From Flavobacterium sp. (lineage in GTDB: Bacteria; Bacteroidota; Bacteroidia; Flavobacteriales; Flavobacteriaceae), in NCBI GenBank assembly GCA_044361155.1, contig JBIKJF010000011.1, positions 69-64,068 of the forward strand: 64,000 nucleotides of DNA, read 5' to 3'. The translations under genes were made by a program, and so were the position numbers. Of the stretch, positions 37,223-62,341 are shown one piece after another; position 1 is the first letter of the stretch, and the number at the start of each line of letters is the position of its first letter. The notes beneath the pieces were generated by a model. The model had not been told where the DNA came from. It saw only the letters and a program-made list of their open reading frames with translations, and ran no database searches.

Positions 37223-37233
37223 ATTATTTAGTG

Positions 37234-40200
37234 TTACTTAATTAAAACAAATGTTTGATTTTCATTTACAATAGTTCCATAGAATGTTTCTGCTGTTACT
37301 TTACTGTAATAGTTTCCGTTTTCAGCATTCAAACCTTTTATTTTGCCATCCCATCCTATAATTACATCTCCCTTCTCAGCATAAATAAGGGAGCCCCAAG
37401 TATCATAAATTTCCAATTGAACCTCTTTCAATCTTTTAGTTACTGGTCGGTAAGTATCATTTAAAGTATCGTTATTTGGAGTAAATGCCGTGGGTACTAC
37501 TAATAAATATCCCTTTTCAACTAGTAGAGTGATGGTTTGCACATATACACAACCAAAAGGATAAGTAACGGTTTGTGTTACTACATAATCTCTTGGGATG
37601 AGATAAGTGTGCACAGGGTTTAACTCAGTTGAAAATGTTCCATCTCCAAAATCCCAAGAAACTGATAAATAATCCCCTGTAATGGTACTATTGAATTGAA
37701 TTGGATCTCCGATGGAATAAATACCGTAGGTAGTATATCCGAAAGAGGTTGCTTCAAAAGAAGTATTACCAATTACAGGGTTGTCTACATCTACAGTATA
37801 ACTAGCTGAACAACCAGCACCATCTGTAACTGTTAGAATTACTGTCCCATTTGTTGTTGAATTCATTATTTGATTGTTCACACCACTTATATTTCCACTT
37901 GACCATTGGTATTGATAAGGGGGAAGGCCACCACTTGCTTGTGCCACAAAATTTTGAGTTACTTCGCGTGTTGTACAATCAAAATCTGTTTGGGTTGTAA
38001 CCGCTATTATCACTGGAGTAGGTCTGACTAAGGAATATTGACCCGAAATGACGCAGTTGTTAGCATCGGTTACTGTTACTAAATAATTTCCTGCATTCAA
38101 ATTGGTCAGGTCTTCTATTGTTGAACCATTTGACCAACTGTAATTGAATGGAGCAGTGCCACCCGATACAATTAAATTTATTGCTCCGCTATTAGCAATA
38201 GTACAATCTAGTGGATTAGTGATATTTGCTGAAAGTACCAAGGGTTGAGGCTGTATTATATTAAATGTTCTCACAATGAAACAAGGCGTGCCATCTGATA
38301 TTGTAGCTACATATGTTCCTGGAGCCAGATTATTTCTTATTAATCCTGCAGTACTACCATCACTCCATGTCAATGCTACCGGAGCAATTCCTCCTGTTAA
38401 ATTAAGATTAATACTTCCATTATTTGCGCCGAAACAAGTTACGTTTGTTACTATCGGATTTACGGTAAATATTGGTGCTTCTGGAATTATTATATTTTGA
38501 ACTTTACTACATCCTAAATTATCTGTTACAGTTATTACATAGGTTCCGGCAGATAGGTTTGTTTGGTTTAAAGTAGTAGCTAAGTTATTCCATTGGTATT
38601 GATATGGGGCGTTTCCACCCGATATTGTTGCGGTTATTGATGCATTGTTTCCACCAAAACAGGTAATTGGTGTTGTAGTAAAACTAACAATAATTTCAGT
38701 TGATTGTGTAATTATAACTACCAAATTTGCAGAACATCCTTGATTATCAGTAACTGTTAGATTGTAAGTTCCTGCTGCAATTGAATTTAAATTTTGATTA
38801 TTATTAGTAAAACCATTTGGTCCAGTCCAAGCATATGTGTAATCTAATGTAGAAGGGTTTGGTGTTCCTCCAACTACATTTATTGTAATAGCTCCTGTTG
38901 CTGTACCAAAACACAATACATTGGTTTGACTCACTAAACTTACCACCAAAAGCGGTGGCTCTGTTATAGTAAACGTGTCTGTTTTTGGACCGCAATTATT
39001 CACGTCTGTAACTGATACAACATAAGTTCCTGGTGTGAGATTAGAAATATCTTGAGTAGTGGCAAAAGGAACATTATTTTTTGTCCAAGTATAAGAATAG
39101 CTCCCTGTTCCACCGGATACCGAAATCGCAATGCTCCCATTTTCACTACCAAAACAAGTACTATCATCTTCATTATCAACTGTAACTACAATATCAGCAG
39201 GTTCACTAATGGTATAAGAGTTTGAAAATGGACAACCTCCAACATCATCAATACTAACATTATAAACTCCTGGTAATAAATTAGTAATATTCGCCGCGGA
39301 AGAAGTAAATCCATTTGGCCCTGTCCAATTTATTGAATAAGGAGGAATTCCACCAGTGATATTGGTAGTAATAGAAGCTGTATTGATACCAAAACAAGTA
39401 TTGTTATTAGCAACTACATTTGGATTAATAGCAGGATTTACAGTTACAGTAACTGTAAAGTTATCACCAGTACATACACCCGAAATTGGCGTAACTGTGT
39501 AAGTAACTGTTGCAGGACTAGTAGTGGAATTCACTAATGTCTGGCTTATATTGGTCTGGGGAGTGTTTTGAGCTGATGCTCCTGTTATGGAACCTGCGGG
39601 AGATATCGTTGGGTTTGACCAAGTATAGGTTGTGCCCGAAGGTATAGTATTTCCTGAAGCAGTAGTCGGAGTAATGGTAAAAGTAGTACTGCTGCAAATG
39701 GTAGTTATTTCTGGCACTATAACGGGATTTGGATTAATGGTTACCTCAGCAGGATTGGATACAATCAATGAGCAAGAACCTGATATAGCGGGAAAAGTAA
39801 CTTCACAGTAATAAAATGTTGTCCCAGTTGGAGTGGCTGGTGGATTATAAGTAGCATTTGTTGCCCCAGAAATTAAAGTTCCACCAATATTAGCACTAAT
39901 GGTGTTGGAATACCATTGATAATTTGGCGTACCTGCACCATTAGCGACGGTTAATGATAAAGTTGTAGGCGTTGCACCTAAACAAATAATACTAGATTGA
40001 GGTTGATTGACAATAGCAGGAGCCAAATTAACATTAACTGTTGCAATAGCGCTCGTTACATTACAGCCTATTCCTGCCGGTTGGGTTATTAAACAGTAAT
40101 AATACAAAGTGCCTGCAATGGTAGTTGAAGGTGTAAAACTATTGTTAGTTTCCCCGACTAATAAAGTACCCGCAGAAGTGTTATTAACTAATGAACTGAA

Positions 40201-43200
40201 CCATTGATAGGCATAAGTAGTACCAATTCCTCCAGAAGCTACTACTGATAATACTGTAGCAGGTGAGTTTTGACATAACGTTTGAGATGCCAATGGTTGA
40301 GTCACTATTATAGGGTCGTTAATCACATCAACTTGTGCTACGGTACTTGTTATTGAACCACATCCACTTCCGCTAAAACTAATCACCACGTAATAATAGT
40401 AAGTTCCTGATATGGTATAGATTGGTGGTGTGTACGATGGTGAATTTATTCCCACAGTTGTTCCACCTGTTGTAGAACTACTTGTATTGCTATACCATTG
40501 ATAACTCGCTGTTCCTGTTCCGCTAGTATAAGAAACTGTCAGCGGATTGGGTAAACTTCCTCCAATACATATGCCTTGATTTGGTATTGGTTGTTGATCA
40601 ATAGTTGCTCCAGGCGTTATTGTCACAACTGCAGTATTAGTAGATACTATAGCACAACTTCCTGATATTCCTGAAAAAGTGATAATACAATAATAATATA
40701 TCGTACCTACAGCCGTAGCTGGAGGGTTAAACGTTGGATTTGTTTCACCAGTTATTGCTACTCCAGTAGTAGTATCATTAACAGTATTAGAATACCACTG
40801 ATAGCTTGGAGTACCAATACCAGTAGTAAAAGTAAATGATAAAGGTGTAGGTGTACCACCAGTACAGACCGTACTTGATACTGGTTGATTAACTATAGTT
40901 GGGGAAGCATTTATTATTACAGTTGCCAAATTACTAGTAACACTACAACCTGGCGTAGACTGCGTAATTATACAATAATAATAAGTTGTCCCTACAGTTG
41001 TTGTAAGTGGGATATAAGTTGCACTATTTGCGCCCGGAATAGCAATACCACCAGTCGTATTGTTAGTAGTATTTCTATACCATTGGTATACAAAAGTTCC
41101 ATTTCCGCCAGATGCAGCAACTATCAAATTACTTGGAGTTGCTCCTTGACATAAGGTTTGCGATATGAGAGGTTGAGTAGTAATTATAGGGTCATCAAAA
41201 ACAGTGACTTGAGCATTATTGCTTGTTACAGCACCACATCCATTTCCTGATAAATTAACTATCACATAGTAATAAAAAGTTCCTGAAACAGTATAAACGG
41301 GAGGTAAATATGTTGCATTAGTTGCACCTGTTATCAATGTTCCACCTGAAGTTGAATTGGTAGAATTGGAATACCATTGATAGGTAGCCGTTCCTATTCC
41401 TCCTGAATAGGAAACCGATAATGGTGTTGGAATAGTTACTCCAACACATAAGTTTTGCGAAACTAAAGGTTGGGTTGTAACTGTTGGCAATGGAGTTATT
41501 GTGACTGTAGCTACATTAGAAGTTATATTTGAACATCCACCAGAGGTTAATGTAATAATACAATAGTAATATAGCACTCCAACTGCACTAGCAGGAGGAT
41601 TATAGGTGGCATTGGTTGCACCAGTAATCAAAGTTCCTCCTGTATTGGAATTAATTGTATTGGAATACCATTGATAAGTTGGTGTAACAGTTGAACTACT
41701 TAAAACTACAGACAATAAAGTAGGCGTTCCTCCCAAACAAACTGTGCTTGAAGCAGGCTGTGTAGTGATTGATGGAGCTGGATTAACAGTAACAACATAA
41801 TTAACGGGTGTCCCGATACAACCTCCCAATGTTGGCGTAATGACATAAGTAACCGTTCCAGGAGATGTATTAGTAGTAGTAATAGTCTGTACAGGTATGG
41901 TGTTAGTACCAGAGGATAAAAACCCAGTTATTCCTGCTGTGGATGTGGCTGTCCAGCTAAATGTGGTACCCGCTGGAGTTGCAGTTAAAGTAACTAATGA
42001 TGTTGATGAACCCGAACAAATGGTTTGACTTAAATTGGTGTTTGTAATTGTTGGTGCTGTATTTACTGTAAAAGTTCGTATAGCAGTACTGGAAGGACCA
42101 CATTCATTACTAACTATTAATGAAACAGTATATGGGCCACCTGCTGGATAACTAATAATTCCTGGGTTAGCGGTATTTGCCGATGATGGTGTACCTCCGG
42201 GGAAACTCCATGCATATGCTAATGTACTTCCTGTTGGCGCACAACTATTTACTGTTGCTGTTGGATTTATAGAAGCTGTACCACATGCATTTGGTATCGC
42301 TGCAATTGCTGCTGTTGGTGGTTTTTTTACGGTAACTGTTTGTGTTGTGTTAAAACTTCCACACGAATTAGTTACCGTTAATCTAATCAAATACGTTCCT
42401 GGCTCTGTAAAGTTATAGGATGCATTTGGTGCCGTTTGATTTGGAATAGTAGGTATTGTAGTTCCGCAAAAAGCAGGTGTGTACTGTACCGACCACACAT
42501 AAGTTGGCGGTGCACATTGATTTGTTAAAGTAGTAGTATTAGTTGCTGTTATCGATAAAGGTGTACATCCTGAATTTGTGTTTAATGTGAATTGAGGTGC
42601 TAATGGCGGTTCTATGCAGATTGTTTTTGTTTCAATATCTGCGCCACATTTATTACCTGTTTTTATTGTAATTGTATAGGTGCCTGGTTGAGTAAAATTT
42701 ATACATAATGGACTTGTACCAGATGTCCAAAGATCAGGATTATTACTTCCAAAATCGTTTCCAAGGGAACCTGATGTTACTGTAAATCCTATCGATGGAG
42801 AAATTGTCCACACAAACTTTGGGCTTGTATTACAATTACTACTACTTCCTAAGTTATCAAACGCACCTATTGATGTATTATTTAAACAAACTTGAGTATT
42901 TACACATGCAGAAGTTGGTAACGTAAAATTTGCAATGGGAGGTGTTGAAACATAAATTGGTACAACACCAATTGCCGACACTCCGCAAGGATTAGCTGCT
43001 ACAATATTAGCTGAAAATGAATTTTGGAAGGTAGTAGTACCATTAGAACTTGAAACTCCACAAGATGTAGTTAAAAACGTATGTGTTACTGATGGTGGTG
43101 GTGGATGACTAAAAATTTGGGATGCAGAACCATCATTGAAGGAAACAGTGTAGGTTGTCCCTGGAGGATTATTATTGGTACCTGTTATTGGAAATGTTAA

Positions 43201-43920
43201 AGGACTTGAACTACAAATATCCGTATTCCCCGGATTTCCCAATGAAACAGCCGGATTTGAACCAACAAATACAATGTAATTTTTTGTAATGCTACATCCA
43301 TTGCTACTTTGAATTGTATATACCAAGTTCCATAAGCCAACTTGATAAGTGTGCGTTAATGGTGTTGTCCATGTATTTGAGGTGAAATTTGGAGAACCAT
43401 CACCCCATGCAATTGTATAATTAGTATTCAATGTGGATGATGTGTTCGATCCATTAGTAAATGTAAAAGTAGAGACATTGTTATTGCATATTCTAAAAAC
43501 AGGAACTCCTCCAAAAGTAGTTCCAGAGCCTGTCCCATTAATTGTAGCATCTGGCTGCGGATTTACTGTTATCATAGCACTATTTGATACTGTTACTGTT
43601 ACGGGTGGTGTCGCCGAGTCCGTAACACTCACCAAAGCATAAGTAAAAGTTCCTGCAGTTGCTGTTGGAGCATTTAAAGTAACAACACTATTGGTTCCTG
43701 TTGTTGAAATTGTTTGATTTGCTCCGCCATTTATAGTATAAGTAAACGTATAAGGAGCTGTTCCACCACTACCTGTAAAAGTAATCAATGGGCTAGCGGC
43801 ATTTTGACAAACGGTAGTAGTACCTGCTATAGTAGCACTGGGCGGAAGAATTACCACATTGGCATGAGCAACACCCATATTTAAAATTAAATAAAAAATA
43901 AAAAAATATAAATGCTTCAT
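37234..43920 (-). CDS. Giant T9SS type-B adhesin (PKD, Ig-like and SprB repeats)
   Basis: Signal peptide; PKD (WGDG/WDFGDG); seven ~98-aa Ig-like repeats (39733-41781); SprB repeats (GGTAPFNYSWSNG...VTVTDANNC); CTD VPTAFTPNNDTLND...IYDTWG...WDG...GNY. Confidence 0.92.
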   Translation of the reverse strand: MKHLYFFIFYLILNMGVAHANVVILPPSATIAGTTTVCQNAASPLITFTGSGGTAPYTFTYTINGGANQTISTTGTNSVVTLNAPTATAGTFTYALVSVTDSATPPVTVTVSNSAMITVNPQPDATINGTGSGTTFGGVPVFRICNNNVSTFTFTNGSNTSSTLNTNYTIAWGDGSPNFTSNTWTTPLTHTYQVGLWNLVYTIQSSNGCSITKNYIVFVGSNPAVSLGNPGNTDICSSSPLTFPITGTNNNPPGTTYTVSFNDGSASQIFSHPPPPSVTHTFLTTSCGVSSSNGTTTFQNSFSANIVAANPCGVSAIGVVPIYVSTPPIANFTLPTSACVNTQVCLNNTSIGAFDNLGSSSNCNTSPKFVWTISPSIGFTVTSGSLGNDFGSNNPDLWTSGTSPLCINFTQPGTYTITIKTGNKCGADIETKTICIEPPLAPQFTLNTNSGCTPLSITATNTTTLTNQCAPPTYVWSVQYTPAFCGTTIPTIPNQTAPNASYNFTEPGTYLIRLTVTNSCGSFNTTQTVTVKKPPTAAIAAIPNACGTASINPTATVNSCAPTGSTLAYAWSFPGGTPSSANTANPGIISYPAGGPYTVSLIVSNECGPSSTAIRTFTVNTAPTITNTNLSQTICSGSSTSLVTLTATPAGTTFSWTATSTAGITGFLSSGTNTIPVQTITTTNTSPGTVTYVITPTLGGCIGTPVNYVVTVNPAPSITTQPASSTVCLGGTPTLLSVVLSSSTVTPTYQWYSNTINSNTGGTLITGATNATYNPPASAVGVLYYYCIITLTSGGCSNITSNVATVTITPLPTVTTQPLVSQNLCVGVTIPTPLSVSYSGGIGTATYQWYSNSTNSTSGGTLITGATNATYLPPVYTVSGTFYYYVIVNLSGNGCGAVTSNNAQVTVFDDPIITTQPLISQTLCQGATPSNLIVAASGGNGTFVYQWYRNTTNNTTGGIAIPGANSATYIPLTTTVGTTYYYCIITQSTPGCSVTSNLATVIINASPTIVNQPVSSTVCTGGTPTPLSFTFTTGIGTPSYQWYSNTVNDTTTGVAITGETNPTFNPPATAVGTIYYYCIITFSGISGSCAIVSTNTAVVTITPGATIDQQPIPNQGICIGGSLPNPLTVSYTSGTGTASYQWYSNTSSSTTGGTTVGINSPSYTPPIYTISGTYYYYVVISFSGSGCGSITSTVAQVDVINDPIIVTQPLASQTLCQNSPATVLSVVASGGIGTTYAYQWFSSLVNNTSAGTLLVGETNNSFTPSTTIAGTLYYYCLITQPAGIGCNVTSAIATVNVNLAPAIVNQPQSSIICLGATPTTLSLTVANGAGTPNYQWYSNTISANIGGTLISGATNATYNPPATPTGTTFYYCEVTFPAISGSCSLIVSNPAEVTINPNPVIVPEITTICSSTTFTITPTTASGNTIPSGTTYTWSNPTISPAGSITGASAQNTPQTNISQTLVNSTTSPATVTYTVTPISGVCTGDNFTVTVTVNPAINPNVVANNNTCFGINTASITTNITGGIPPYSINWTGPNGFTSSAANITNLLPGVYNVSIDDVGGCPFSNSYTISEPADIVVTVDNEDDSTCFGSENGSIAISVSGGTGSYSYTWTKNNVPFATTQDISNLTPGTYVVSVTDVNNCGPKTDTFTITEPPLLVVSLVSQTNVLCFGTATGAITINVVGGTPNPSTLDYTYAWTGPNGFTNNNQNLNSIAAGTYNLTVTDNQGCSANLVVIITQSTEIIVSFTTTPITCFGGNNASITATISGGNAPYQYQWNNLATTLNQTNLSAGTYVITVTDNLGCSKVQNIIIPEAPIFTVNPIVTNVTCFGANNGSINLNLTGGIAPVALTWSDGSTAGLIRNNLAPGTYVATISDGTPCFIVRTFNIIQPQPLVLSANITNPLDCTIANSGAINLIVSGGTAPFNYSWSNGSTIEDLTNLNAGNYLVTVTDANNCVISGQYSLVRPTPVIIAVTTQTDFDCTTREVTQNFVAQASGGLPPYQYQWSSGNISGVNNQIMNSTTNGTVILTVTDGAGCSASYTVDVDNPVIGNTSFEATSFGYTTYGIYSIGDPIQFNSTITGDYLSVSWDFGDGTFSTELNPVHTYLIPRDYVVTQTVTYPFGCVYVQTITLLVEKGYLLVVPTAFTPNNDTLNDTYRPVTKRLKEVQLEIYDTWGSLIYAEKGDVIIGWDGKIKGLNAENGNYYSKVTAETFYGTIVNENQTFVLIK

Positions 43921-45247: not shown

Positions 45248-45538
45248 TTATTTTAGTAGTTCAAGGTCTTGGAGTTTTCTTCCTAGTTCATCGTCTGCTG
45301 CTAGTTGTAGAAAATCATCTTGTAGGCCTAAAACACGTAGCACATTGAAATAGGCTCCCATTGCTACACTTGTGTTTCCTTGTTCAATTAAATGCAATGT
45401 TGACCGAGAAATAGCTGCTCGCTCTGCTACTTGAATCATAGTGAGTTTTCGCCTTTTACGAGCTATCTTGATATTTTCTCCCATTTGTTCTAAAACCTTT
45501 TTATACTTTGGGAAAACAATTTGTTCTTTGGTTGCCAT
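45248..45538 (-). CDS. XRE-family HTH protein, HipB-like antitoxin
   Basis: IKIARKRRKLTMIQVAERAAISRSTLHLIEQG; precedes the hipA remnant. Confidence 0.88.
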   Translation of the reverse strand: MATKEQIVFPKYKKVLEQMGENIKIARKRRKLTMIQVAERAAISRSTLHLIEQGNTSVAMGAYFNVLRVLGLQDDFLQLAADDELGRKLQDLELLK

Positions 45539-45615
45539 TTCTTGTTATTGTATTTTAATTTAAATCTTTCTATCTCAAATTGCAATAGATAAATAACTTA
45601 AGCAAAGATTTTGTT

Positions 45616-45717
45616 TGGCGACTGGCAGTAGACCATCCCAACCAAAAAGTACCACCATGCATTCAAAGAGCACCAATAGAAAAGGATGGTGAATATCGGT
45701 TGTTGTTGATTTGTTAG
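45616..45717 (+). pseudogene. C-terminal fragment of a DUF1826-like gene
   Basis: WRLAVDHPNQKVPPCIQRAPIEKDGEYRLLLIC*; in-frame stop at 45586-45588 and no start codon. Confidence 0.6.
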
Positions 45718-45735
45718 AAGATTAGATATTTTTAT

Positions 45736-46119
45736 TTAAAAAACATTCTCACTAAAAGTCAATATTGGTAAATAATCGACTTTGCTTAATTCATATTCAT
45801 CACAATACTCTTTCATCCATTTTTTGATGTTTGGATTGTTTTCTATCGAGATATCTTCTGAGAAATTTTCTTTTAGTTTTACTTCAAAATAATATTCGGT
45901 TGTAGAGTTTTCTTTACCTTTTATTTTTGATTTATGTTTGTGTTTGATAGATTCAATTTCACCAAAATAGGAGGTAAGGTGAAATGCTTTTGCACGACCA
46001 CCAGAATAGATTACAAGCTTTTTAGCATTGTATAAATCGTAAGGAAACTCCAATAAATTATTTTGTTTGTGTGTAGAATGAAAATAAAATATTTTTAATA
46101 CTAAATTGATTAAAAACAT
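45736..46119 (-). CDS. Hypothetical protein (start uncertain, may be a fragment)
   Basis: 127-aa ORF with protein-like composition after about residue 24; no recognised motif. Confidence 0.4.
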   Translation of the reverse strand: MFLINLVLKIFYFHSTHKQNNLLEFPYDLYNAKKLVIYSGGRAKAFHLTSYFGEIESIKHKHKSKIKGKENSTTEYYFEVKLKENFSEDISIENNPNIKKWMKEYCDEYELSKVDYLPILTFSENVF

Positions 46120-46242
46120 TTTTTTTATTTAAATAATTGAAAATGAATAGGTTTTAATTTTGTTTGTAAAATATTGATTTTGATCACATTATAATTTGTT
46201 TTTATGAAATAATGATCTAATATTTGCATTAAATCATTTATT

Positions 46243-46722
46243 ATGAATACATCTTTTGAACGTTGTGAAAACACTAAAGTTGAATGGTTAACACCACCAG
46301 AATTAGTAGAAAAATTAGGTAAATTTGATTTAGACCCATGTAGTCCAATCAATCCGCCATTTTTACATGCAACAAATAATTTCACAACTAATGATAATGG
46401 ATTGACTAAAAAATGGTTTGGTAGAGTTTATCTAAATCCACCATATGGAAGAGGAATGGAATTGTGGATGGAAAAATTAAAAATTCACGGAAATGGGATT
46501 GCATTAATTTTTGCAAGAACAGAAACAAAGTGTTTTTTTGAGCATGTTTGGAATGATGCAGATGCTGTTTTATTTGTAAAAGGTAGAATCAGATTTTATC
46601 ATGTTACAGGAATTCAAGCAGGTACTCCTGGAGCTCCAAGTGTATTTATAGCTTACGGTAAAGAAAATTCAGAAATACTTATGAATTCAGGAATTGAGGG
46701 ACGATTTATAAAATTGAAATAA
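46243..46722 (+). CDS. Phage-type DNA N6-adenine methyltransferase (Dam, PF05869-like)
   Basis: EWLTPPEL, FDLDPCS, DNGL...W, VYLNPPYG, LIFARTET, FVKGRIRF. Confidence 0.9.
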   Translation: MNTSFERCENTKVEWLTPPELVEKLGKFDLDPCSPINPPFLHATNNFTTNDNGLTKKWFGRVYLNPPYGRGMELWMEKLKIHGNGIALIFARTETKCFFEHVWNDADAVLFVKGRIRFYHVTGIQAGTPGAPSVFIAYGKENSEILMNSGIEGRFIKLK

Positions 46723-46929
46723 TTATAAAATTTCATAACAAATAAATTCTGCAACATTAAACTCAGAATCAATAATCCAATCATTTTCTAATAATAACTT
46801 TTTATAAGCTTCATTTTCATCAGAAACATTTTCGACAATACCGATTACTTGCATATTTTCAATTTCATTTCCGTTTGGTGAAAATGTACTTCCTTCTGGA
46901 GTTATAAATATGTATTTTTTCATTTCCAT
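46723..46929 (-). CDS. Small acidic hypothetical protein
   Basis: 68 aa, overlaps the end of the PLD-wH gene by 10 nt; its stop abuts the Dam stop. Confidence 0.6.
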   Translation of the reverse strand: MEMKKYIFITPEGSTFSPNGNEIENMQVIGIVENVSDENEAYKKLLLENDWIIDSEFNVAEFICYEIL

Positions 46930-47714
46930 AGTTTTCTGTAATGACCATTTCCTAAAAATTCAACTAATCCCAAATCTCTTAAATATTGAAGTTGTTGTCT
47001 TATTTTATCTGTTATATGCTCATTATTAGGATAAATTATTTTCAATTGGTTTTCAAATTTATTTATTTCAGTTGATGTAAATACCTGATTTGGAATTATA
47101 TTAATACATTTAAAAACTTCTAATTTCCAGCCTTTTAATGATGAAGATATTGTTTGGTTAGGTATTTCCAGAGTATCATAATTGTTTTCTGGTGATTCAA
47201 AATTAAAATTAGGAAATTTTACTGATTCATTTGATGGAATTTTTGATAATATTTCTTTTACTTTTTCTAAATGAGAAAGATTCAATTCACCAGTTCTTTT
47301 GTTATCAGATAATAAATTAAAATCGTTTGATACTTTAGAAACTAGGTTTTTCTCATTTGAATAAATTCCATACTCATAATTATTAACTAAACCTCCATAA
47401 GTTAAATTTCCGGAACTAATTATCACTTCTTTATCATCAAATAAATAAATTTTAGAATGAAGTTTTGAAAAATTTTTTACGATTCCTTTTTGGTTAATTA
47501 TCTTCTCAATTGCAGCAATATCCAAAGAACCTGAATAAATATTTCCAAGTTTGAATGAAGTTATTAGTTCTAATTTTACATTAGATTGTTTTGCAGATAA
47601 CATTTCATCACAAATATTTTCTTTAACGAAAGGAGATGTTATTTTTATTGATTTTTTTGAATTTGAAACTAATTCTAGAAAATCTGATTTCCAAGGTGTT
47701 GTAATTGTCTTCAT
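46920..47714 (-). CDS. PLD-family nuclease fused to a DpnI-type winged-helix m6A reader
   Basis: Single HKD motif LHSKIYLFD...ISSGNLT; C-terminal KGWKLEVFKCI...YPNNEHITDKIRQQLQYLRDLGLVEFLGNGHYRKL closely follows the DpnI C-terminal domain. Confidence 0.88.
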   Translation of the reverse strand: MKTITTPWKSDFLELVSNSKKSIKITSPFVKENICDEMLSAKQSNVKLELITSFKLGNIYSGSLDIAAIEKIINQKGIVKNFSKLHSKIYLFDDKEVIISSGNLTYGGLVNNYEYGIYSNEKNLVSKVSNDFNLLSDNKRTGELNLSHLEKVKEILSKIPSNESVKFPNFNFESPENNYDTLEIPNQTISSSLKGWKLEVFKCINIIPNQVFTSTEINKFENQLKIIYPNNEHITDKIRQQLQYLRDLGLVEFLGNGHYRKLWK

Positions 47715-56503: not shown

Positions 56504-56560
56504 ATTTCAAAAAAACGACTTTCAAAAGCAAAGCTTTTGAGCCATTTTTTTGTAATAAAA

Positions 56561-56587
56561 AAACCGATTAGCTATGCTAATCGGTTT
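56561..56587 (-). terminator. Intrinsic terminator downstream of the tRNA 3' fragment
   Basis: Perfect AAACCGATTAGC-TAT-GCTAATCGGTTT, followed by a T run on the minus strand. Confidence 0.85.
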
Positions 56588-56592
56588 TCTTT

Positions 56593-56610
56593 TGCGGAGA
56601 AAGAGGGATT
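56593..56610 (-). other. att core: duplicated 3' end of a tRNA-Ser-like gene
   Basis: Minus strand AATCCCTCTTTCTCCGCA equals the T-arm 3' half, acceptor strand and G73 discriminator; the T-loop is broken (GGTT-AATCCC instead of GGTTCGAATCCC) and the rest of the tRNA is absent. Confidence 0.8.
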
Positions 56611-56666
56611 AACCTCGTGCCTTTATATTGCTGATATACAATGTAGTATATTTTGTTTTTAATTCA

Positions 56667-56687
56667 AGTACCCCTAATAGTACCCCT
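56667..56687 (+). promoter_or_regulatory. Direct repeats, candidate integrase arm-type sites
   Basis: AGTACCCCT at 56667-56675 and 56679-56687, about 60 bp inside the att. Confidence 0.45.
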
Positions 56688-56839
56688 CTAAATTATTGTG
56701 GTTTATCATCTATGTTGATACTTCAAATTTACAAAAAATACTTCAATTTAAATTCCGTTTTGTGATTAAAATTTGAATTGGTAGTTATTTATTTTACAGA
56801 CAAGTAAAGTTTGTTTTTTGAACAAGTAAACTTTAAAAA

Positions 56840-57043
56840 CTAACCAATAATAAGACGCTCAACTTGTTCATATTTTAAGCTAGTGTATTGGCAGAACTCC
56901 TCGATGCTCACAAGTTCATTTTGGAGCTTATTGAGGTCCTTTCTGATATTTTGCAACATTCGTATGCTTTGCCTGTAACTCTTCCCTGTAATACGTTGTA
57001 TGTCCTTTGGGTAGATACACAATCTCTTATTTTCAATTTTCAT
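56840..57043 (-). CDS. Small basic HTH protein, excisionase/RDF-like
   Basis: 67 aa, IYPKDIQRITGKSYRQSIRMLQNIRK (MerR/Xis-like HTH); first gene inside the att. Confidence 0.6.
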   Translation of the reverse strand: MKIENKRLCIYPKDIQRITGKSYRQSIRMLQNIRKDLNKLQNELVSIEEFCQYTSLKYEQVERLIIG

Positions 57044-57206
57044 ACACTATCTATAGCTTTAACTAGGCTTTGACTTACATGAAAGCCGTATAATCCAATT
57101 TTTTGAACAGGATAAAATTAGTAAAAAATCTATTTTGTTTAGAAGCTGCAATTTACTTTTAATTTTTAGGTTCAAAAACGTGTATTTATGTCGATTTCTG
57201 CCATTT

Positions 57207-57223
57207 ATGTCACAAAGTGACAT
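57207..57223. promoter_or_regulatory. Operator-like palindrome in divergent intergenic region
   Basis: ATGTCAC-AAA-GTGACAT. Confidence 0.45.
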
Positions 57224-57355
57224 ATTGTATTGGTGCTACTTTTTTAATCGGTTTAATTGACTAAAATTTGTTTTTGAAATCAATCGATGGATGTTGCAAC
57301 AGAATGATGATTGAGGGAAATGATCACTGATTTTAATAATTAAAATTTTGAAGTT

Positions 57356-58114
57356 ATGGCTAGACAGAAAGGCATAATTAAACTAAAAGGTACTATCGGA
57401 GATATTACTTTTTACAAAACGCAAGATGGACACTTAGCAAGAGAAAAAGGCGGAATTGACGCTAGTAGAATTGCCAGTGACCCTGCGTTTCAAAGAACGC
57501 GTGAAAATGGTTCGGAGTTTGGCAGAGCTGGCAAAGCCGGAAAGGTTTTGAGAACGGCATTAAGAGCATTGCTTTTAAATTCTGCTGATGGTAGAATGGT
57601 TAGTCGTTTGACGCAAGCGATGGTAAAGGTTATTCAAGCGGATTTGGTGAGCGACAGAGGCTTGCGTAACGTGATTGATGGTGAAGCGGAATTGCTTACG
57701 GGATTCGAGTTTAACATTCGTGGTAAATTAGGAACTAGTTTATTCGCTCCTTTTGTTGCAACAATTGACCGTGTTGCTGGAGAAATAAGTGTTGATTTGG
57801 CTTCGTTTATTCCAGTTAATATGATTGCAGCTCCATCAGGAACTACTCATTTTAAAATTATTTCTGCTGGTGCTGAAATTGATTTTGAAGCTGAAACGTT
57901 TGTCGAAACGCATTCAGAAACTGCCATTTTACCATGGGATGCCACTGCAACTGCTGTGATAAGCCAAGTAAATGCAGTTACGCCTGCGAGTACAAAACCA
58001 TTGTTTTTGGCATTAGGTGTTGAATTTTATCAGCAAGTAAATGGAACTATGTACCCGCTTAAAAATGGTGCTTTCAACCCGTTATCGGTTGTGAAAGTAG
58101 ATAGCGGTGTGTAA
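57356..58114 (+). CDS. Hypothetical 252-aa protein (basic N-terminal arm, beta-rich C-terminal half); possible virion structural protein
   Basis: MARQKGIIKLKGTIGDITFYK...; no signal peptide; TAATG-coupled to DUF5675. Confidence 0.8.
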   Translation: MARQKGIIKLKGTIGDITFYKTQDGHLAREKGGIDASRIASDPAFQRTRENGSEFGRAGKAGKVLRTALRALLLNSADGRMVSRLTQAMVKVIQADLVSDRGLRNVIDGEAELLTGFEFNIRGKLGTSLFAPFVATIDRVAGEISVDLASFIPVNMIAAPSGTTHFKIISAGAEIDFEAETFVETHSETAILPWDATATAVISQVNAVTPASTKPLFLALGVEFYQQVNGTMYPLKNGAFNPLSVVKVDSGV

Positions 58115-58509
58115 TGGTTCTTGAATTGACCAGAACTTATTTCCCTAACGGAACTAACGGAAAACTCGAATGTAAAGGAAAATCGATTTGTAATACAATT
58201 GAGTTACCATGGAGAGAAAATGAAACGAGAGTTTCCTGCATTCCGGAAGGGAAATATTTTATTAAAAAACGATACAGCCAAAAATTTCAATGGCATTTGG
58301 AGGTTTTGGATGTGAAAAACAGAAGTCTAATTCTGTTTCATCCAGCCAATAATGCTTTGCAAGAATTGAACGGTTGTATTGCTCCAGTAACTAAACTTTC
58401 TGGACCAGGATTAGGGTTGATGTCCCGAAAAGCTTTTATAAGTTTAAAATCGATGGTTTATAAAGCTTTGGACAAAAAAGAAAGTGTTGAATTGATTGTG
58501 AAATCTTAA
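58114..58509 (+). CDS. DUF5675 family protein (L,D-transpeptidase-like His/Cys peptidoglycan enzyme, putative endolysin)
   Basis: TNGKL...CNTIELPW...SCIPEGKY, ILFHPANN...GCI; no signal peptide. Confidence 0.8.
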   Translation: MVLELTRTYFPNGTNGKLECKGKSICNTIELPWRENETRVSCIPEGKYFIKKRYSQKFQWHLEVLDVKNRSLILFHPANNALQELNGCIAPVTKLSGPGLGLMSRKAFISLKSMVYKALDKKESVELIVKS

Positions 58510-58521
58510 ATAGTTATTTTT

Positions 58522-58773
58522 ATGAATATACTAGAAAGAGCGAAAGCTCCAACTCCGAAATTTTTTAAGATTTTGAGAAGTATTGGATTGGCATTATTGG
58601 GTATTAGTGGTTCAATAGTAGCTGCTCCAGTTGTTTTACCTGCAGCAGTAGTTACTGCAGCAGGTTATGTAGCTGTTGCAGGTGGTGTAATTTCTGCAAT
58701 TAGCCAAATAACTGTTGATGATAAAGCCAAGAAAGAAATTGAGAACCTCAGCAAAGCGCGTGATGGAAACTAA
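58522..58773 (+). CDS. Small membrane protein, holin-like
   Basis: 83 aa, long Ala/Val/Gly hydrophobic stretch (about 2 TM), basic N-terminus, charged C-terminus. Confidence 0.6.
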   Translation: MNILERAKAPTPKFFKILRSIGLALLGISGSIVAAPVVLPAAVVTAAGYVAVAGGVISAISQITVDDKAKKEIENLSKARDGN

Positions 58774-58939
58774 TATTTCTTTAAAAGCTGGCACTGCATC
58801 AGGAACAGTATTGAGTATTTTACCCAATATTCTTTCTGAAGATATTGTAAAAACAATTATCTTAGCAGCGTTGGGAGCAACTGTTAGTTTTACGGTTTCG
58901 CTCTCATTAAAATGGTTGACAAAATCTAAAAATAAATAG
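58763..58939 (+). CDS. Small membrane protein, holin/antiholin-like (58 aa, ATG 58763)
   Basis: METNISLKAGTASGTVLSIL...IILAALGATVSFTVSLSLKWLTKSKNK; hydrophobic segments and basic tail. Confidence 0.55.
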   Translation: METNISLKAGTASGTVLSILPNILSEDIVKTIILAALGATVSFTVSLSLKWLTKSKNK

Positions 58940-58979
58940 TCCAGTTTTCGTGTGGTAACCTTTACTGGATTAACTTAAG

Positions 58980-59007
58980 AAGCCTAGTCGTTAGACCAGG
59001 CTTTTTT
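58980..59007 (+). terminator. Intrinsic terminator ending the four-gene operon
   Basis: AAGCCTAGTC-GTTA-GACCAGGCTT-TTTT; preceded by a second hairpin TAGTCCAGT...ACTGGATTA (58937-58972). Confidence 0.75.
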
Positions 59008-59429
59008 CATTTATTACAATAGCGGTATAAAATTACTCTTCGCATATCGTTTATGAGATTGATATTCTCATGAAACTGCTTTTCCTTTTGTTCTAGAAGC
59101 TTTAGTGCTGCAATATGCTTAACATGTTGCTCGTGCTCTTCCATCATGATTTTTGCTTTTGGAAAAAACTCTTTTTTGAAGTCTGGAAGACGTAAGAATG
59201 GAATTACGGAACCACAAAGAAATTGGTGCCAGAATTTTGTTTTCCATAAACTATAAGCAATGAAAAATAAACTTTCGCATTCATCCTCGTTTTGAAAAAT
59301 GATAACAAAACTGTTCGTAAATGGCTCTTTTTGTGGCTTTCCGCTGTTCATCCCTTTGTTAAGTACAAATAAATGAGGTCTTGAGTAAATCGTGTCTTTT
59401 CGGTGGGTTTTGATGATAAAATTCGGCAT
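59007..59429 (-). CDS. DUF6943-like protein
   Basis: FVLNKGMNSGKP...PFTNSF, LCGSVIPFLRL, C-terminal amphipathic helix. Confidence 0.7.
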   Translation of the reverse strand: MPNFIIKTHRKDTIYSRPHLFVLNKGMNSGKPQKEPFTNSFVIIFQNEDECESLFFIAYSLWKTKFWHQFLCGSVIPFLRLPDFKKEFFPKAKIMMEEHEQHVKHIAALKLLEQKEKQFHENINLINDMRRVILYRYCNK

Positions 59430-59569
59430 AACATTCGGCTTTAAAAATTGATTATATTTTCAATTTTCTGCGGATTTTCTCTTGAAATGCAGGTGTCTCT
59501 CGCTACGCTCGACCTATAAATTTTTCAAAAGAAAAAAAAGAAAAAAAGAAAGCCATTCGTTCAAGTGGA

Positions 59570-60689
59570 AGGTTTCAAAAAAGCAAGTTTTTTTGAAAAA
59601 ATACTACCCGAATGGGTGGAGATTTTTTCAAAAACCCGTAGGGCTTGAACTTGCTTTTTTGTAAACCTGGAACTTATCTTTGCTCTCTTTTTTTTTATTT
59701 TTTATTTTGATTTCATTTACTAAACATCATCGTATAATCTGAATTTGTTTGAAGGATTGGGTGTTGATGTGGAAGATGGTCGTCTTTGGAAGTGTATCAA
59801 TTTTTTGTAGATGGATGACTGAGTGTGATGAAAAAGAAAATGTGCTTTATCCATCTGAAAAATTGATACTCTTCCTTCTACAATTTGATTTTTGAGGATG
59901 CTTAAATAGTGTTCAGTTTTCAGGATTTAGTAATCAATCGGAATGTTGTTATGGAAATGGGAAGCATCTTCAAAAAACAATGCAAATACTTACCAAGTGC
60001 GTTGGCAGAAGCTCAGAGCAAGGGTATCATTTTTTTATTTGCTTATTGGGAGTTTCTGATTGCTTTTATTAATAGCTGATGCCACAAATAGTGTTCAGTT
60101 TACAGTTTTTAGTCTTCAGCATAAACTTGTTTAGTAACGTTATGGCATCAGCTATTGTGAAAGCAATTACCTCTGTGCGTTGTGGCAAATGAAAAATGAT
60201 ACTCTTGCTGGCTCTTTTGGTTTTGTGGGTGCCTGATTGATGTTCTGACGGAAGAAGTTATTGCCCAGAAAAAAGTTGTTATGAAAATGAAAAGGCACTT
60301 ACAAAAGCAATGAAAACACTACCGATTTAACAAGTTAGTTGCTAAAAACAGTTACCGTAAACGTTCTTGAAAGTAAGTATGACCGTAAAGTTTCCTATGA
60401 AATAGCGAACGTTGTTGAAGACAGTGGCGAAGGGTGGTTTTTTGAGTAGCCGGCTGGTGCGATGGAAGCTGCTCAAAAAGTTGCCCTAGAGCCACTGGCA
60501 AGCGCGTTGGGTGTGGCGGCTTTTTTACATAATGTTATTATAGTGCATCCTAATATTTCATTAGTAGCAGGGTGTTTCTTTATGCACTATAATGCCACAT
60601 TATGTAAAGAAGCTTGGGGAAAAAAATTACTGGCATGAGTCGCTTTGCGAACATGTTTTTGTTCCAAAAACCATGACAGTAATTTTTTT
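59570..60689 (+). other. Non-coding array of at least seven long imperfect hairpins (structured ncRNA or ssDNA element)
   Basis: Stems 59570-59668, 59788-59875, 59889-59976, 60017-60209 (nested 60059-60167), 60422-60497, 60519-60613, 60620-60689; no credible ORF. Confidence 0.8.
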
Positions 60690-60742
60690 GGAGCGTTGGC
60701 AAAGGAGTGGCATTTGAAAACTTAAAACGTAATTAAAAAAGA

Positions 60743-62341
60743 TTATTTTCTATGCCTTTTATTTATAAGTTTTTGTCTAATATTTTCTATTTTATCAATC
60801 TCCTCAACTGTTAAACCAAGTGTTCCGTTAAGTATTTGATAGTTATATTTATTTAGAATATCTTTTATAGAAGTCTTATTTTTAAATTCTGAGATATATT
60901 CTTCAAAGTTATTGCAATTGGTATAAGGAATTGGTAGTACTCTCAATTCATTTGGTGTCAATTCTAAAACTCCACCTCCATAATATCTTCCTTCTAATTC
61001 TGCAAAAGCTAATGTTAGTGAATTATAAAAAGAAAAAATAAAATTATTTAATTCAAAGCCTTCTTTAATTTCAATTTTGTATGCGCTGTCAGTAACAAGA
61101 ACATCTGCATCATTTCTTAAAAGTTTAGGATATTCATGTGCTCTCTTAAAAAAGAAAGCTTCAGGAATTGTAGCTATGTTTGGCACCTTGTACCATCTTT
61201 CCCTTTGTTTGCATTTGAACCTTGAAGGTAATTCCAATTGATTACCAATATTAAAATATTCGTTCATTTCAGGAGTAATTTCATTATCAATTAAAGAATT
61301 GAAATCAAGCAAATATGTTGGTTTACGCTCTTCAACTAATGTATCAAAATCTTTTTTATTGAATGTAACCGAACCGTTTACGAAGAATCCTTTTTGAACA
61401 ATTGGTTTAGCAAAATTTTGAAAATTATATGCTTGAACAACATCATTATTTACTATGAAATAATTGTTGGCAGCAGTAACTATTCCCGCTTTATTATTAA
61501 TGAAATGTGTAACATTTTGTATGCGCAGTTTTAAGTTTTCTAGAAACTCATATTCTTCGGGTGTTATAAAATGATGTGACCACTTCCTGTCTGAATTAGC
61601 AAGTGCGGTATTTTCATAAAACTCATAATTATCATTTTCTAAATCGTCTAATGCATTAATATTAGTATAGAATGTTCCTTGATTTTCATGTGCTTTATAT
61701 CCAATTAATAAAACCGTATCTTGTCCTTTACATTCCTGGAATTGAAGTTCATTAAAAGTAAAAATTTCTATTCTTTGAAATTCATTTATTAATAACGATC
61801 TTATTTCTTCAGTAAATTTGACTTGCAATAATTCTAATGGTAATATCATCGCCAAAATACCATTATCTTGTAGTTTAGTAATTCCGCTTATTAAAAAAGA
61901 TGTCCAAATATTATTAATACTTCTATCTGATAAATATTTTTCAGAATGAATCCTTTTTGCTAACTCTTTCTGCTCCTCTGACAAATGATTTTTTTTAACA
62001 TAAGGAGGATTTCCGATAATAAGTGAGTAGCGATTTTGGTCGTTGAAATGGAAATTTAAGTAATCTAAATTATTTGGAATTAAATTAATTTTTTGATTTA
62101 TTTCAAGATCAATTACTTTTTGTAATTCGTCATTTTCTTTTTCTACAACTGTATTGTTAATCGTTTCAAATCTTTCAAGTTCTTGACTTTTTGATATTGC
62201 ATTGATAAAAGCACCATCCCCAACACTTGGTTCAAGTATAGATATAGTTTGTTGATTGTCTATCTTGGATAAACAATAATCTGCCACAAAATCTGCTAAT
62301 CTTGTAGGTGTATAATAAGAACCTAACTTTTTTTTATTCAT
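60743..62341 (-). CDS. Gamma-class N6-adenine DNA methyltransferase (Eco57I/TaqI-like)
   Basis: LGSYYTP, motif I ILEPSVGDGAF, motif IV IIGNPPYV, C-terminal AELEGRYYGGGVLELTPNE. Confidence 0.92.
   Translation of the reverse strand: MNKKKLGSYYTPTRLADFVADYCLSKIDNQQTISILEPSVGDGAFINAISKSQELERFETINNTVVEKENDELQKVIDLEINQKINLIPNNLDYLNFHFNDQNRYSLIIGNPPYVKKNHLSEEQKELAKRIHSEKYLSDRSINNIWTSFLISGITKLQDNGILAMILPLELLQVKFTEEIRSLLINEFQRIEIFTFNELQFQECKGQDTVLLIGYKAHENQGTFYTNINALDDLENDNYEFYENTALANSDRKWSHHFITPEEYEFLENLKLRIQNVTHFINNKAGIVTAANNYFIVNNDVVQAYNFQNFAKPIVQKGFFVNGSVTFNKKDFDTLVEERKPTYLLDFNSLIDNEITPEMNEYFNIGNQLELPSRFKCKQRERWYKVPNIATIPEAFFFKRAHEYPKLLRNDADVLVTDSAYKIEIKEGFELNNFIFSFYNSLTLAFAELEGRYYGGGVLELTPNELRVLPIPYTNCNNFEEYISEFKNKTSIKDILNKYNYQILNGTLGLTVEEIDKIENIRQKLINKRHRK

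Follow-up and report, generated by a model that had tools for sequence, protein, structure and literature searches.

The window analysed here is a 64-kb stretch of Flavobacterium sp. DNA (assembly GCA_044361155.1, contig JBIKJF010000011.1), and positions below refer to it. At 59521-60735 it carries an array of nine long hairpins, HP1 to HP9, which were delimited by folding and by the consensus of 62 homologous sequences and which are listed in Table 1. It is strongly supported that the plus strand of this array folds on its own and that this folding is under selection. The function that we place first, with a probability of roughly 0.45 judged from sequence comparison, is that of a cis-acting region which would work when the plus strand of a surrounding integrative island is present as single-stranded DNA (ssDNA). 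Two hairpins suggest this reading: HP1 resembles the single-strand promoter Frpo of the F plasmid, and HP8 resembles the folded attP(+) site of the CTX phage. A structured RNA of about 1 kb is placed second. The two are not mutually exclusive, and the duplex could give rise to a transcript that is not what selection acts on. The first-pass annotation, made from the letters of the window, had left the choice between a non-coding RNA (ncRNA) and folded ssDNA open; since HP1 is Frpo-like and HP8 is like the CTX attP, folded ssDNA is now somewhat better supported than RNA.

Strand-specific folding and covariation

Related loci were sampled from two sides. The best 80 of 381 places with a DUF6943 gene in one-genome-per-species contigs were compared with the window by blastn. 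The whole non-coding array was present in 61 loci, at 61-96% identity and near-constant length, and the array alignment held 62 sequences. Metagenome loci were found with the invariant part of the 5' arm of HP8, which gave at least 120 matches. Folding was scored against dinucleotide shuffles (z), and minimum free energies (MFE) were calculated with RNA and with DNA parameters. Column shuffles and slid partners served as controls for covariation. A strand-neutral mismatch test was also used, in which helices were defined without G-U pairs and symmetric mismatches were then counted.

No conserved open reading frame (ORF) was found in the span 59430-60742, either in the ORF list or in the homologue alignment, as expected from the first-pass call of a non-coding region. 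All of the long stems with perfect cores named in that annotation were found again in their places, together with the inverted repeats I4, I8, I20 and I1. Against dinucleotide shuffles the nine hairpins have z values of -3.7 to -7.8; the RNA folds account for -3.7 to -7.5, and the DNA fold of HP1 gives -7.8.

In the 62-sequence alignment, 93.4% of 16559 cells are paired and 88 of the 273 pairs change on both sides. Cells with double-sided change number 1000, compared with 332 in column shuffles and about 200 with slid partners. The consensus pairs include 1564 G-T cells versus 187 A-C cells (74 versus 18 columns), spread over every hairpin, while base composition alone predicts a ratio of 1.55:1. 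The strand-neutral test gave 786 G-T versus 128 A-C mismatches over the 62 sequences and 12 versus 2 in the window alone. The G-T excess described in the first-pass annotation therefore stands, and only its statement that A-C is absent was slightly overstated.

The energies agree in direction. With RNA parameters the MFE of the window array is -376 kcal/mol on the plus strand and -297 kcal/mol on the minus strand. HP2 to HP9 have the lower MFE on the plus strand in all 61 homologues with RNA and DNA parameters alike, the values being -320 versus -245 kcal/mol (RNA) and -169 versus -143 kcal/mol (DNA). Folding against shuffles and covariation among homologues had been proposed as checks of whether the plus strand is selected to fold as a single strand. 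Because covariation, the G-T/A-C asymmetry and the MFE all point the same way across homologues, we conclude that it is.

A promoter-like hairpin

HP1 is the most conserved part of the array, and its ratio of G-T to A-C is 220:13. The sigma-A promoter of Flavobacterium and Bacteroides has a TTG at -33 and a TAnnTTTG at -7, the latter box spanning -12 to -5 (PMC9723704), and the consensus used here, TAnnTTT[GA] plus TTG, was taken from the same source. On either strand of the 1.3 kb there is a single conserved TAnnTTT[GA], TATCTTTG, which is present in 54 of 62 sequences with a TTG 21 nt upstream. This -7 box lies within a conserved 9 x 6 internal loop of HP1; the side facing it is variable and in no case complements it. 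Upstream of HP1 there is no conserved promoter box, and no recognisable duplex -7 box was seen at the DUF6943 gene itself. As DNA, HP1 of the window folds about equally on both strands. Two candidates were set aside at this point. A putative CTnDOT attB motif, GTANNTTTGC, was considered as a rival meaning of the -7 box and was dropped, being absent from the CTnDOT joint region and from the literature searched. A scan with sigma-70 and terminator models was uninformative for Bacteroidota.

Homologues of HP1 with compensatory stem differences occur in Bacteroidales plasmid records and elements. For example, a CTnDOT-type record, a circularised conjugative transposon with int, tetQ, rteABC, mobABC and traA-Q, carries a version of about 290 nt (z -8.9) near its right end, upstream of an opposite-strand group of genes, hyp-hyp-PcfK-PcfJ-DUF3873. 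In a B. ovatus element HP1 stands 76 nt upstream of an opposite-strand JAB/RadC-ArdA-DUF3873 operon and has a perfect box in the bubble, and plasmids of P. vulgatus and B. fragilis show the same geometry of HP1 and gene. The related locus L063 has a second HP1 copy (L063:8038-9042), located 250 nt upstream of an opposite-strand gene for 217 amino acids (aa). The N-terminus of this 217-aa protein (GKxxGxxGxxV...NPRT..Q) resembles that of the 252-aa protein encoded in the window at 57356-58114, so that the family of the 252-aa protein can also be associated with HP1.

Five contexts of HP1 were thus distinguished: DUF6943, hyp-hyp-PcfK-PcfJ, JAB-ArdA-DUF3873, a 108-aa plus a hypothetical gene, and an f2-like gene. 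In each of the five, the complementary strand has a gene start about 70-250 nt away from the 5' side of HP1. On the 3' side no constant pattern was seen, HP1 being followed by the array, by a doubtful small ORF or by convergent genes. The MobB relaxase gene lies opposite to the HP1 strand in all five Bacteroidales records that have both, which is not independent evidence; this orientation fits the assumed last entry of the mob operon. In metagenomes HP1 has 4-6 times the depth of its neighbours, because it is also present in other element families.

The geometry of HP1 was compared with known single-strand promoters. On ColIb-P9, ardA is a classic early gene driven by an ssDNA promoter, and from such sites genes such as ardA, ssb and psiB are expressed early off the incoming strand. 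Frpo is the single-strand promoter hairpin of the F plasmid, which serves early transcription from the incoming strand and priming (PMC11541004). The Frpo and ssi hairpins of F and ColIb-P9 share with HP1 a long imperfect hairpin on the template strand, host promoter boxes on one arm, a mispaired melting box and genes on the complementary strand that lie directly outside the hairpin base (ArdA in one HP1 context), and they likewise belong to conjugative or mobilisable elements. Unlike Frpo, HP1 has the boxes TTG at -33 and TAnnTTTG at -7 instead of TTGACA/TATAAT, and HP1 of the window is followed by 1 kb of further hairpins. The likeness is one of architecture; similarity in sequence to Frpo was not seen, though no search was aimed at it. 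No paper linking Frpo-type promoters with Bacteroidota was found in the literature searched.

A dif-like hairpin

A dif site consists of an 11-nt XerC arm, a 6-nt centre and an 11-nt XerD arm. HP8 contains two related sequences as inverted arms 47 nt apart. The 5' arm, read on the minus strand, is ATAA-TAACA-TTATGTAAA (60524-60541; ATAA-N5), and the 3' arm, on the plus strand, is ATAA-TGCCACA-TTATGTAAA (60589-60608; ATAA-N7). The pattern ATAA-N5-8-TTATGTWAA has two matches in 64 kb, both in HP8, where 0.28 are expected, and in 1.19 Mb of related loci 81 of its 84 matches fall in HP8. A lone dif-like match elsewhere, L080:696, proved to be a terminator-like palindrome and was rejected. The XerD-like arm, TTATGTAAAGA, has 9 of 11 positions as in the dif sites of B. 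subtilis and F. alni. Set against the matching 20 nt of the F. alni dif, given as ATAATGCACATTATGTCAAG, the HP8 sequence ATAATGCCACATTATGTAAAG has one inserted base and one substitution, with HP8 spacers of 5 and 7 nt and not 6. Among the matches listed, spacers of 5 nt and 7 nt were found in 65 of 68 metagenome loci; because of them, neither duplex arm of HP8 has the canonical 11-6-11 layout. In the folded strand the two arms are perfect and enclose a bulged centre, with a 2-nt bulge in the DNA fold.

The nearest described counterpart is the attP(+) of the CTX phage, which is used by XerCD as in other integrative mobile elements exploiting Xer (IMEX). There too, two inverted dif-like sequences, separated by a few tens of nt, can pair in ssDNA around an imperfect centre and are masked in the duplex. 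In addition, tandem build-up in a single orientation and the many copies without an integrase of their own are common to CTX/IMEX and to the islands described below. The islands differ from CTX in being 10-60 kb long, in belonging to Bacteroidota and in not being filamentous phages. The spacers of 5 and 7 nt, the position of HP8 away from the element end, the absence of a hybrid dif at the island borders scanned and the IntDOT-type integrase of some islands are further differences, and use of HP8 by Xer is putative.

Proposed function

The array would control the ssDNA phase of a Flavobacterium integrative island. The plus strand, which is also the template for DUF6943 and for all cargo genes, would be the strand present as ssDNA, and mobilised entry into a new cell by conjugation is its most likely origin. 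HP1 would fold into a duplex-like promoter with the -33 and -7 boxes on its 3' arm and the -7 box in a bubble, from which host RNA polymerase may proceed leftwards, past the 5' arm and on into DUF6943, ahead of complementary-strand synthesis. The HP1 RNA could also prime that synthesis. HP8 would bring its two inverted dif-like half-regions together as a single duplex site whose centre is unequal and partly unpaired. This site, presumably recognised by a tyrosine recombinase, either Xer-type or the island integrase, would be hidden in double-stranded DNA. The remaining hairpins and the GCG(A/T)TGG motifs may keep SSB and RecA off, offer priming sites or bind proteins. The designs of HP1 and HP8 would make sense only in DNA, and long stems with hypervariable loops would correspond to the architecture of ssDNA sites.

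The gene-free layout has parallels of its own. The intergenic region of Ff phages and the single-strand origins (sso) of rolling-circle plasmids and of ICEBs1 are gene-free and contain strand-specific ssDNA hairpins, one of which is a primer hairpin for RNA polymerase. The array resembles them as a gene-free stretch of several strand-specific hairpins. It differs in length, being 1.2 kb instead of 150-500 nt, and in that the rolling-circle Rep or relaxase which accompanies Ff and sso regions was not found nearby.

Observations against this function and the RNA alternative

The ssDNA control region has to be weighed against several observations. First, up to 10 kb away from the array neither a relaxase nor an oriT nor a rolling-circle Rep turned up, so no source of ssDNA was seen. 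Secondly, the details of HP8 deviate from a CTX-type site. The dif references used were the predicted F. alni dif, CACGCCGATAATGCACATTATGTCAAGT, and the B. subtilis dif, ...TATATATTATGTAAACT, and not the dif of Flavobacterium itself. About 120 conserved nt, made up of HP9 and the terminal segment, extend beyond HP8, while integration of the CTX type predicts a hairpin at the very end. No further (hybrid) dif-like site was found at island borders in the related-locus sequence scanned, and Xer is not obviously needed, because an IntDOT-type integrase is present in 17 of the 80 loci. Third, in the CTnDOT version of HP1 the -7 box is paired and the other arm has a near-consensus box; because a -7-like box stands on both arms, a palindromic divergent duplex promoter is possible there. 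Fourth, part of the G-T excess could come from C-to-T deamination of an exposed strand and not from selection. Lastly, the remaining points on this side are also those that favour an RNA.

The RNA alternative, the main rival, which we consider possible though less probable, is a structured ncRNA of about 1 kb reaching from about 59687 to 60690-60735. It would be transcribed rightwards from a duplex HP1 promoter, would fold as HP2 to HP9 and would end at the U-run of HP9, convergent with the cargo genes. Such an RNA would act as a scaffold or decoy, with binding at GCG(A/U)UGG and at the HP7 loop, or would separate the cargo from the DUF6943/integrase module as an antisense insulator. The promoter boxes do, in duplex DNA, point rightwards into the array, and the conserved -33/-7 promoter directly upstream is the sole one in the region. 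The energy asymmetry is greater with RNA parameters, about -75 kcal/mol compared with about -25 kcal/mol with DNA parameters. HP7 keeps three to four consecutive G-T(U) pairs (alignment columns 1441-1444 are G-U in 52-56 of 62 sequences), which form a helix in the RNA fold and an internal loop in the DNA fold, and many columns alternate between G-U and Watson-Crick pairs. Pieces of the array were found in metatranscriptome or RNA-type runs, with 13 near-identical contigs compared with one on the flanks, and array words occur in many RNA runs. Two loci, L043 and L074, carry a different structured and strand-biased non-coding stretch in the slot downstream of HP1. In addition, partial 3' copies flank inserted cargo, as at the 3' ends of RNA genes used for integration.

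Against the RNA, a start at about 59687 leaves out the 5' arm of HP1, although HP1 covaries and shows the G-T excess given above, and a conserved box for an earlier start was not seen upstream of HP1. An architecture of near-perfect 15-30-bp stems in a row, with loops that are hypervariable and junctions of which few are conserved, is unlike known large RNAs, and its stems would be substrates of RNase III. In an RNA, neither the dif-like arms of HP8 nor the asymmetry of their spacers would have an obvious meaning. The contigs from RNA runs carry no strand, and carry-over of DNA is possible. As for known large RNAs, GOLLD, ROOL, HEARO/omega RNA and OLE are similar to the array in length (0.6-1 kb), in covariation, in their association with mobile DNA and in that their function is open. 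However, they have multi-helix junctions and pseudoknots where the array has linear near-perfect hairpins, HP1 spans the putative promoter, and the array has no Rfam match. Searches of Rfam 15 with the window and nine related loci gave no match at the gathering threshold, and at E values up to 10 gave only microRNA-like hairpin noise. Checks for Rfam families, attC sites and miniature inverted-repeat transposable elements (MITEs) likewise gave no known RNA or repeat. The first-pass suggestion that the array could be the partner RNA of the defence operon is not supported, since the cargo changes from locus to locus and the array is constant.

Other explanations

A function in duplex DNA only is unlikely. 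It would make HP1 a palindromic divergent promoter and bidirectional terminator, HP9 a terminator and the rest duplex sites for recombinases or regulators whose layout as inverted repeats is incidental. Occasional cruciforms would be possible, but no strand would have to fold by itself. HP1 and HP9 are flanked by A- and T-runs like bidirectional terminators, the CTnDOT version has its -7-like box on both arms, HP1 of the window folds about equally on the two strands as DNA, and each HP8 arm alone is a dif-like duplex sequence. Such a function does not predict an 8:1 excess of G-T over A-C on one strand in every hairpin, nor the compensatory upkeep of 15-30-bp stems over 1 kb. Moreover, the canonical 6-bp spacer is missing from both arms of HP8, whose 5/7 asymmetry is kept among loci, and nine hairpins exceed what termination needs.

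The first-pass annotation had also considered attC-like sites belonging to the minus-strand cargo, and an integron-like set of cassette hairpins is now largely refuted. The array resembles attC in that recombination hairpins of one strand adjoin co-oriented cargo, and a partial copy of the array end follows the cargo block in four loci. However, neither RYYYAAC (R'') nor GTTRRRY (R') boxes stand at the base of any of the nine hairpins on either strand, no ORF lies between hairpins as an ORF-plus-hairpin cassette would require, and IntI is absent among the neighbours, whose integrases are IntDOT-type. The additional copies are truncated 3' pieces that differ in length and are not complete hairpins, and the array is fixed and syntenic, not variable.

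A phage packaging signal, likewise raised earlier, was not borne out: in 2.9 million viral contigs neither the array nor a true match of DUF6943 or of the HP1 pattern was found, 15 pattern matches having failed the HP1 profile. One weak phage match was obtained by blastn.

The least probable explanation, selfish palindromic repeats of the MITE or repetitive extragenic palindrome (REP) type without an island function, could appeal to small hairpin insertions in some copies (for example a 50-nt insert near 59515 in L007, L045 and L049) and to the raised metagenome depth over HP1, but all 61 complete loci have the hairpins in the same order with each present once per module, and the window has a single copy. 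In 1.38 Mb of loci, a module has one HP1 in all but three cases, which are second modules or single additional copies. The covariation and the conserved unpaired motifs speak for a function, and the depth is explained by other element families.

Parts of the array

The array sits between the start of the minus-strand DUF6943 gene and the end of a minus-strand methyltransferase gene (60743-62341). Its parts are given in Table 1.

Table 1. Hairpins, motifs and adjoining gene of the array, in window positions.
Feature	Position	Strand	Remarks
DUF6943 gene, 140 aa	59007-59429	-	Pfam PF22105, E 9e-57; directly 5' of HP1, complementary strand
HP1, composite long hairpin	59521-59710	+	Helices 1-7 paired 96-99%, compensatory pairs; DNA MFE -47 kcal/mol, z -7.8
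HP1 outer stem I1, 29 nt, A-rich/T-rich	59525-59553 / 59682-59710	+	
HP1 core stem	59563-59675	+	Includes inverted repeat I6, 59573-59589/59648-59664
HP1 apical stem	59604-59619	+	Tip insert of 0-85 nt, variable among loci
HP1 side hairpin	59635-59643	+	
Sigma-A boxes, HP1 3' arm	TTG 59651-59653; TATCTTTG 59675-59682	+	21-nt spacer
HP2	59788-59875	+	I3 59788-59805/59858-59875; helices 9-11, compensatory change in 8 of 9 inner pairs; z -7.2
HP3	59885-59980	+	Helix 12; loop with tandem heptamers AGTNTTY, 59908-59928
HP4, outer stem enclosing HP5	60011-60214	+	I4; helices 14 and 15 (HP4/HP5)
HP5	60057-60170	+	I7 60071-60087/60140-60156; loop heptamers 60090-60117
HP6, HP3 paralogue	60217-60310	+	D1 repeat; helices 16-18; -28.4 kcal/mol on plus versus -15.3 kcal/mol on minus strand
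Linker, conserved, mostly unpaired	60313-60420	+	Direct repeat ACCGTAAAC/ACCGTAAAG (D7); near-invariant columns
HP7	60422-60497	+	Near-invariant apical loop with GCGATGG, 60459-60465
HP8	60518-60614	+	Arms are inverted dif-like sites; I18 60537-60548/60582-60593
HP9, flanked by A7 and T7	60619-60689	+	I5 60620-60637/60672-60689; helix 30
Terminal conserved segment, GGAGCGTTGGCAAAGGAGTGGCA...	60690-60735	+	blastn similarity ends at 60709-60734
Unpaired GCG(A/T)TGG motifs, four conserved	59999-60005, 60459-60465, 60504-60510, 60693-60699	+	
GCG(A/T)TGG copy in the window alone	60177-60183	+	

Compensatory change is frequent in individual helices: it affects 12 pairs in helix 15 (HP4/HP5) and 17 pairs in helices 24-26 of HP7, which are 98.7% paired. 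The stem core of HP9, ATTACTGGC.../...CAGTAAT, is kept in distant lineages, and HP9 may serve as a bidirectional terminator where the array meets the convergent cargo genes.

The internal repeats described in the first-pass annotation were all recovered. The recurring segment of about 50 nt (D1) is 76% identical between its copies, and the common loop start (D2) is 85% identical over 33 nt. The repeats D1 and D3 show HP2-HP3 and HP4/5-HP6 to be an internal duplication with a spacing of 330 nt. The loop start shared by HP3 and HP5 consists of the tandem AGTNTTY heptamers. The apical insert of HP1 carries the same heptamers in some loci, and HP1, HP3 and HP5 thus look like one kind of object. 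GCGTTGK, the recurring border motif of the annotation, occurs four times in the array, always on the plus strand, and ten times in the whole window. Among homologues it is conserved as GCG[AT]TG at about 59999, 60459, 60504 and 60693, with 3.5 occurrences per array on the plus strand and 0.11 on the minus strand. A fifth plus-strand GCGTTGG lies outside the array at 58868-58874, between the gene for a small membrane protein and the 3' end of DUF6943.

Small hairpin-capable insertions were observed before HP1 and after its T-run. They measure about 45-50 nt (TTTTCGCCAAAT...GGAAGCGAAGAATATTCA) and about 100 nt and resemble miniature mobile insertions. They occupy alignment columns 206-250 and 525-610 and occur in L007, L009, L045, L049, L050, L063, L073, L075 and L081.

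Conservation and island context

The window is low in GC, and its homologues point to a Flavobacterium living in fresh or waste water. DUF6943 has 1942 homologues and is often present several times per genome. The array is conserved in the 61 Flavobacterium genome loci and in at least 80 metagenome loci. Sampling from the array side recovered the same linkage, which therefore holds: among the matches listed, DUF6943 was found in 37 of 44 and HP1 in 39 of 51 metagenome loci with enough flank. Distant and even GC-rich lineages that give no blastn alignment keep the stems of HP8 and HP9, an HP7-like stem and GCGTTGG motifs. The persistence of the HP8 and HP9 stems would fit recognition of the stems by a protein. 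Nothing about the function of DUF6943 was obtained from Pfam, PHROGs, PADLOC, NCBIfam or a PDB profile search, and the AlphaFold model (mean confidence score, pLDDT, of 57) was too poor for a fold search.

In the best 80 loci, blastn similarity to the window spans about 56840-60730 and stops sharply at both ends. The conserved block comprises the array and four genes, namely those for the 252-aa protein, a DUF5675 protein and the small membrane protein and, on the opposite strand, that for DUF6943. The 252-aa protein has no family match, and DUF5675 is treated as lysin-like in the literature. The genes to the right of the array vary among loci. Those that could be assigned are defence-like: AbiE, DUF3800, Schlafen/AlbA ATPase and UmuDC. 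The 1,034-aa cargo family f29 is a putative type I restriction subunit, and another cargo protein is, by eye, a candidate OLD-like ATPase. In the window the cargo consists of the type II methyltransferase mentioned above and a PtuB-like HNH protein. The array is thus placed between a conserved module of small genes and variable defence cargo, in line with the first-pass placement. All cargo genes are on the minus strand, with the plus strand as their template. They are preceded by RteC, an HTH_17 excisionase-like protein, a 280-aa protein and a DnaC/DnaI-like, loader-like ATPase.

The IntDOT-type tyrosine integrase lies to the left in those loci that have it. The window and the F. psychrophilum copies have no neighbouring integrase and adjoin ordinary chromosomal genes. 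The islands stand in tandem, in a single orientation and several per genome. No direct repeats of at least 11 nt that could be att sites were found between the array end and the region past the integrase, and the scan gave no tRNA or tmRNA.

Two variations of the array region were observed among the related loci. In L043:8300-9700 and L074:8600-10000 (reverse strand) another non-coding stretch replaces HP2 to HP9. It is about 600 nt long and purine-rich, its copies are 73-85% alike, and DUF6943 and HP1 or an HP1-like A/T stem are present beside it. Its plus strand is favoured, with -337 and -343 kcal/mol versus -280 and -299 kcal/mol, and it has no Rfam match. Partial direct copies of the array 3' end were found at L006:6824-6858, L069:575-602, L080:2430-2660 and L082:4844-4924. 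These have a shared 3' limit and a 5' extent of 30 to about 150 nt, and they lie 1.3-6 kb past the array in the four loci. The cargo between the copies is integrase-less (Abi-like, UmuDC with SRAP, AbiEii-like f32 and others), and the partial copies look like a recombination scar.

A second conserved non-coding block, at 56590-57355, lies upstream of the 252-aa gene; with z -2.8 on both strands it is not unusually structured. The similarity of the closest loci begins at 56590-56594, right after a terminator hairpin at 56560-56588. Contigs of runs X43 and X46, which may be of DNA or RNA type, begin at 56594 and are the deepest in this region. Along the window the cumulative GC skew climbs from about 3 kb to a peak near 61 kb, where the array lies, and then falls. 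This is a weak hint that would fit a terminus- or dif-proximal site, but only 3 kb of probably foreign DNA lie to the right of the peak.

Two further observations concern other parts of the window. At 45248-47714, amid sugar-utilisation genes, an HTH protein and a PDDEXK-like ORF accompany a Dam-type methyltransferase (46243-46722) and a nuclease with PLD and DpnI-C domains (46920-47714), and this cluster may be a methylation-dependent restriction pair. At 36191-43920 an ORF of 2228 aa stands beside a PorP/SprF gene; it is probably a type IX secretion cargo with its partner PorP/SprF, and it served to assign the organism to Bacteroidota.

Significance

No RNA family, repeat family or attC described so far corresponds to the array, and the combination of HP1 and HP8 in one conserved 1.2-kb cassette is undescribed. 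To our knowledge, ssDNA promoters and folded-ssDNA recombination sites come from a handful of proteobacterial and firmicute systems, and neither has been described in Bacteroidota, the promoters of which are not of the sigma-70 type. A broader reading, speculative and doubtful at present, is that of a single-strand operating system of Bacteroidota in which an Frpo-like -33/-7 promoter is combined with a CTX-like folded site of the dif type. The promoter would then be common to CTnDOT-family elements, where it stands upstream of ArdA and of PcfK-PcfJ, and to the Flavobacterium defence islands. The islands would be new Xer-exploiting elements that enter by mobilisation, express DUF6943 from ssDNA and integrate as folded ssDNA, and HP2 to HP7 with the GCG(A/T)TGG motifs would represent further undescribed classes of functional ssDNA hairpin.

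If the reading of HP1 is true, it becomes testable, in CTnDOT and in the Flavobacterium defence islands, whether the incoming strand gives zygotic expression of genes for anti-restriction and establishment. In gut Bacteroides, resistance to tetracycline and erythromycin is carried mainly by CTnDOT, and the fish pathogen F. psychrophilum is among the hosts of the islands. If HP8 is a folded recombinase site, integration of ssDNA extends beyond the vibrio phages. If instead the RNA alternative is true, the array would be a new and widespread structured RNA of 1 kb, in its own right a rarity. Under both readings the array sharply marks a very common family of islands, with 381 matches in one-per-species genomes and at least 120 in metagenomes.

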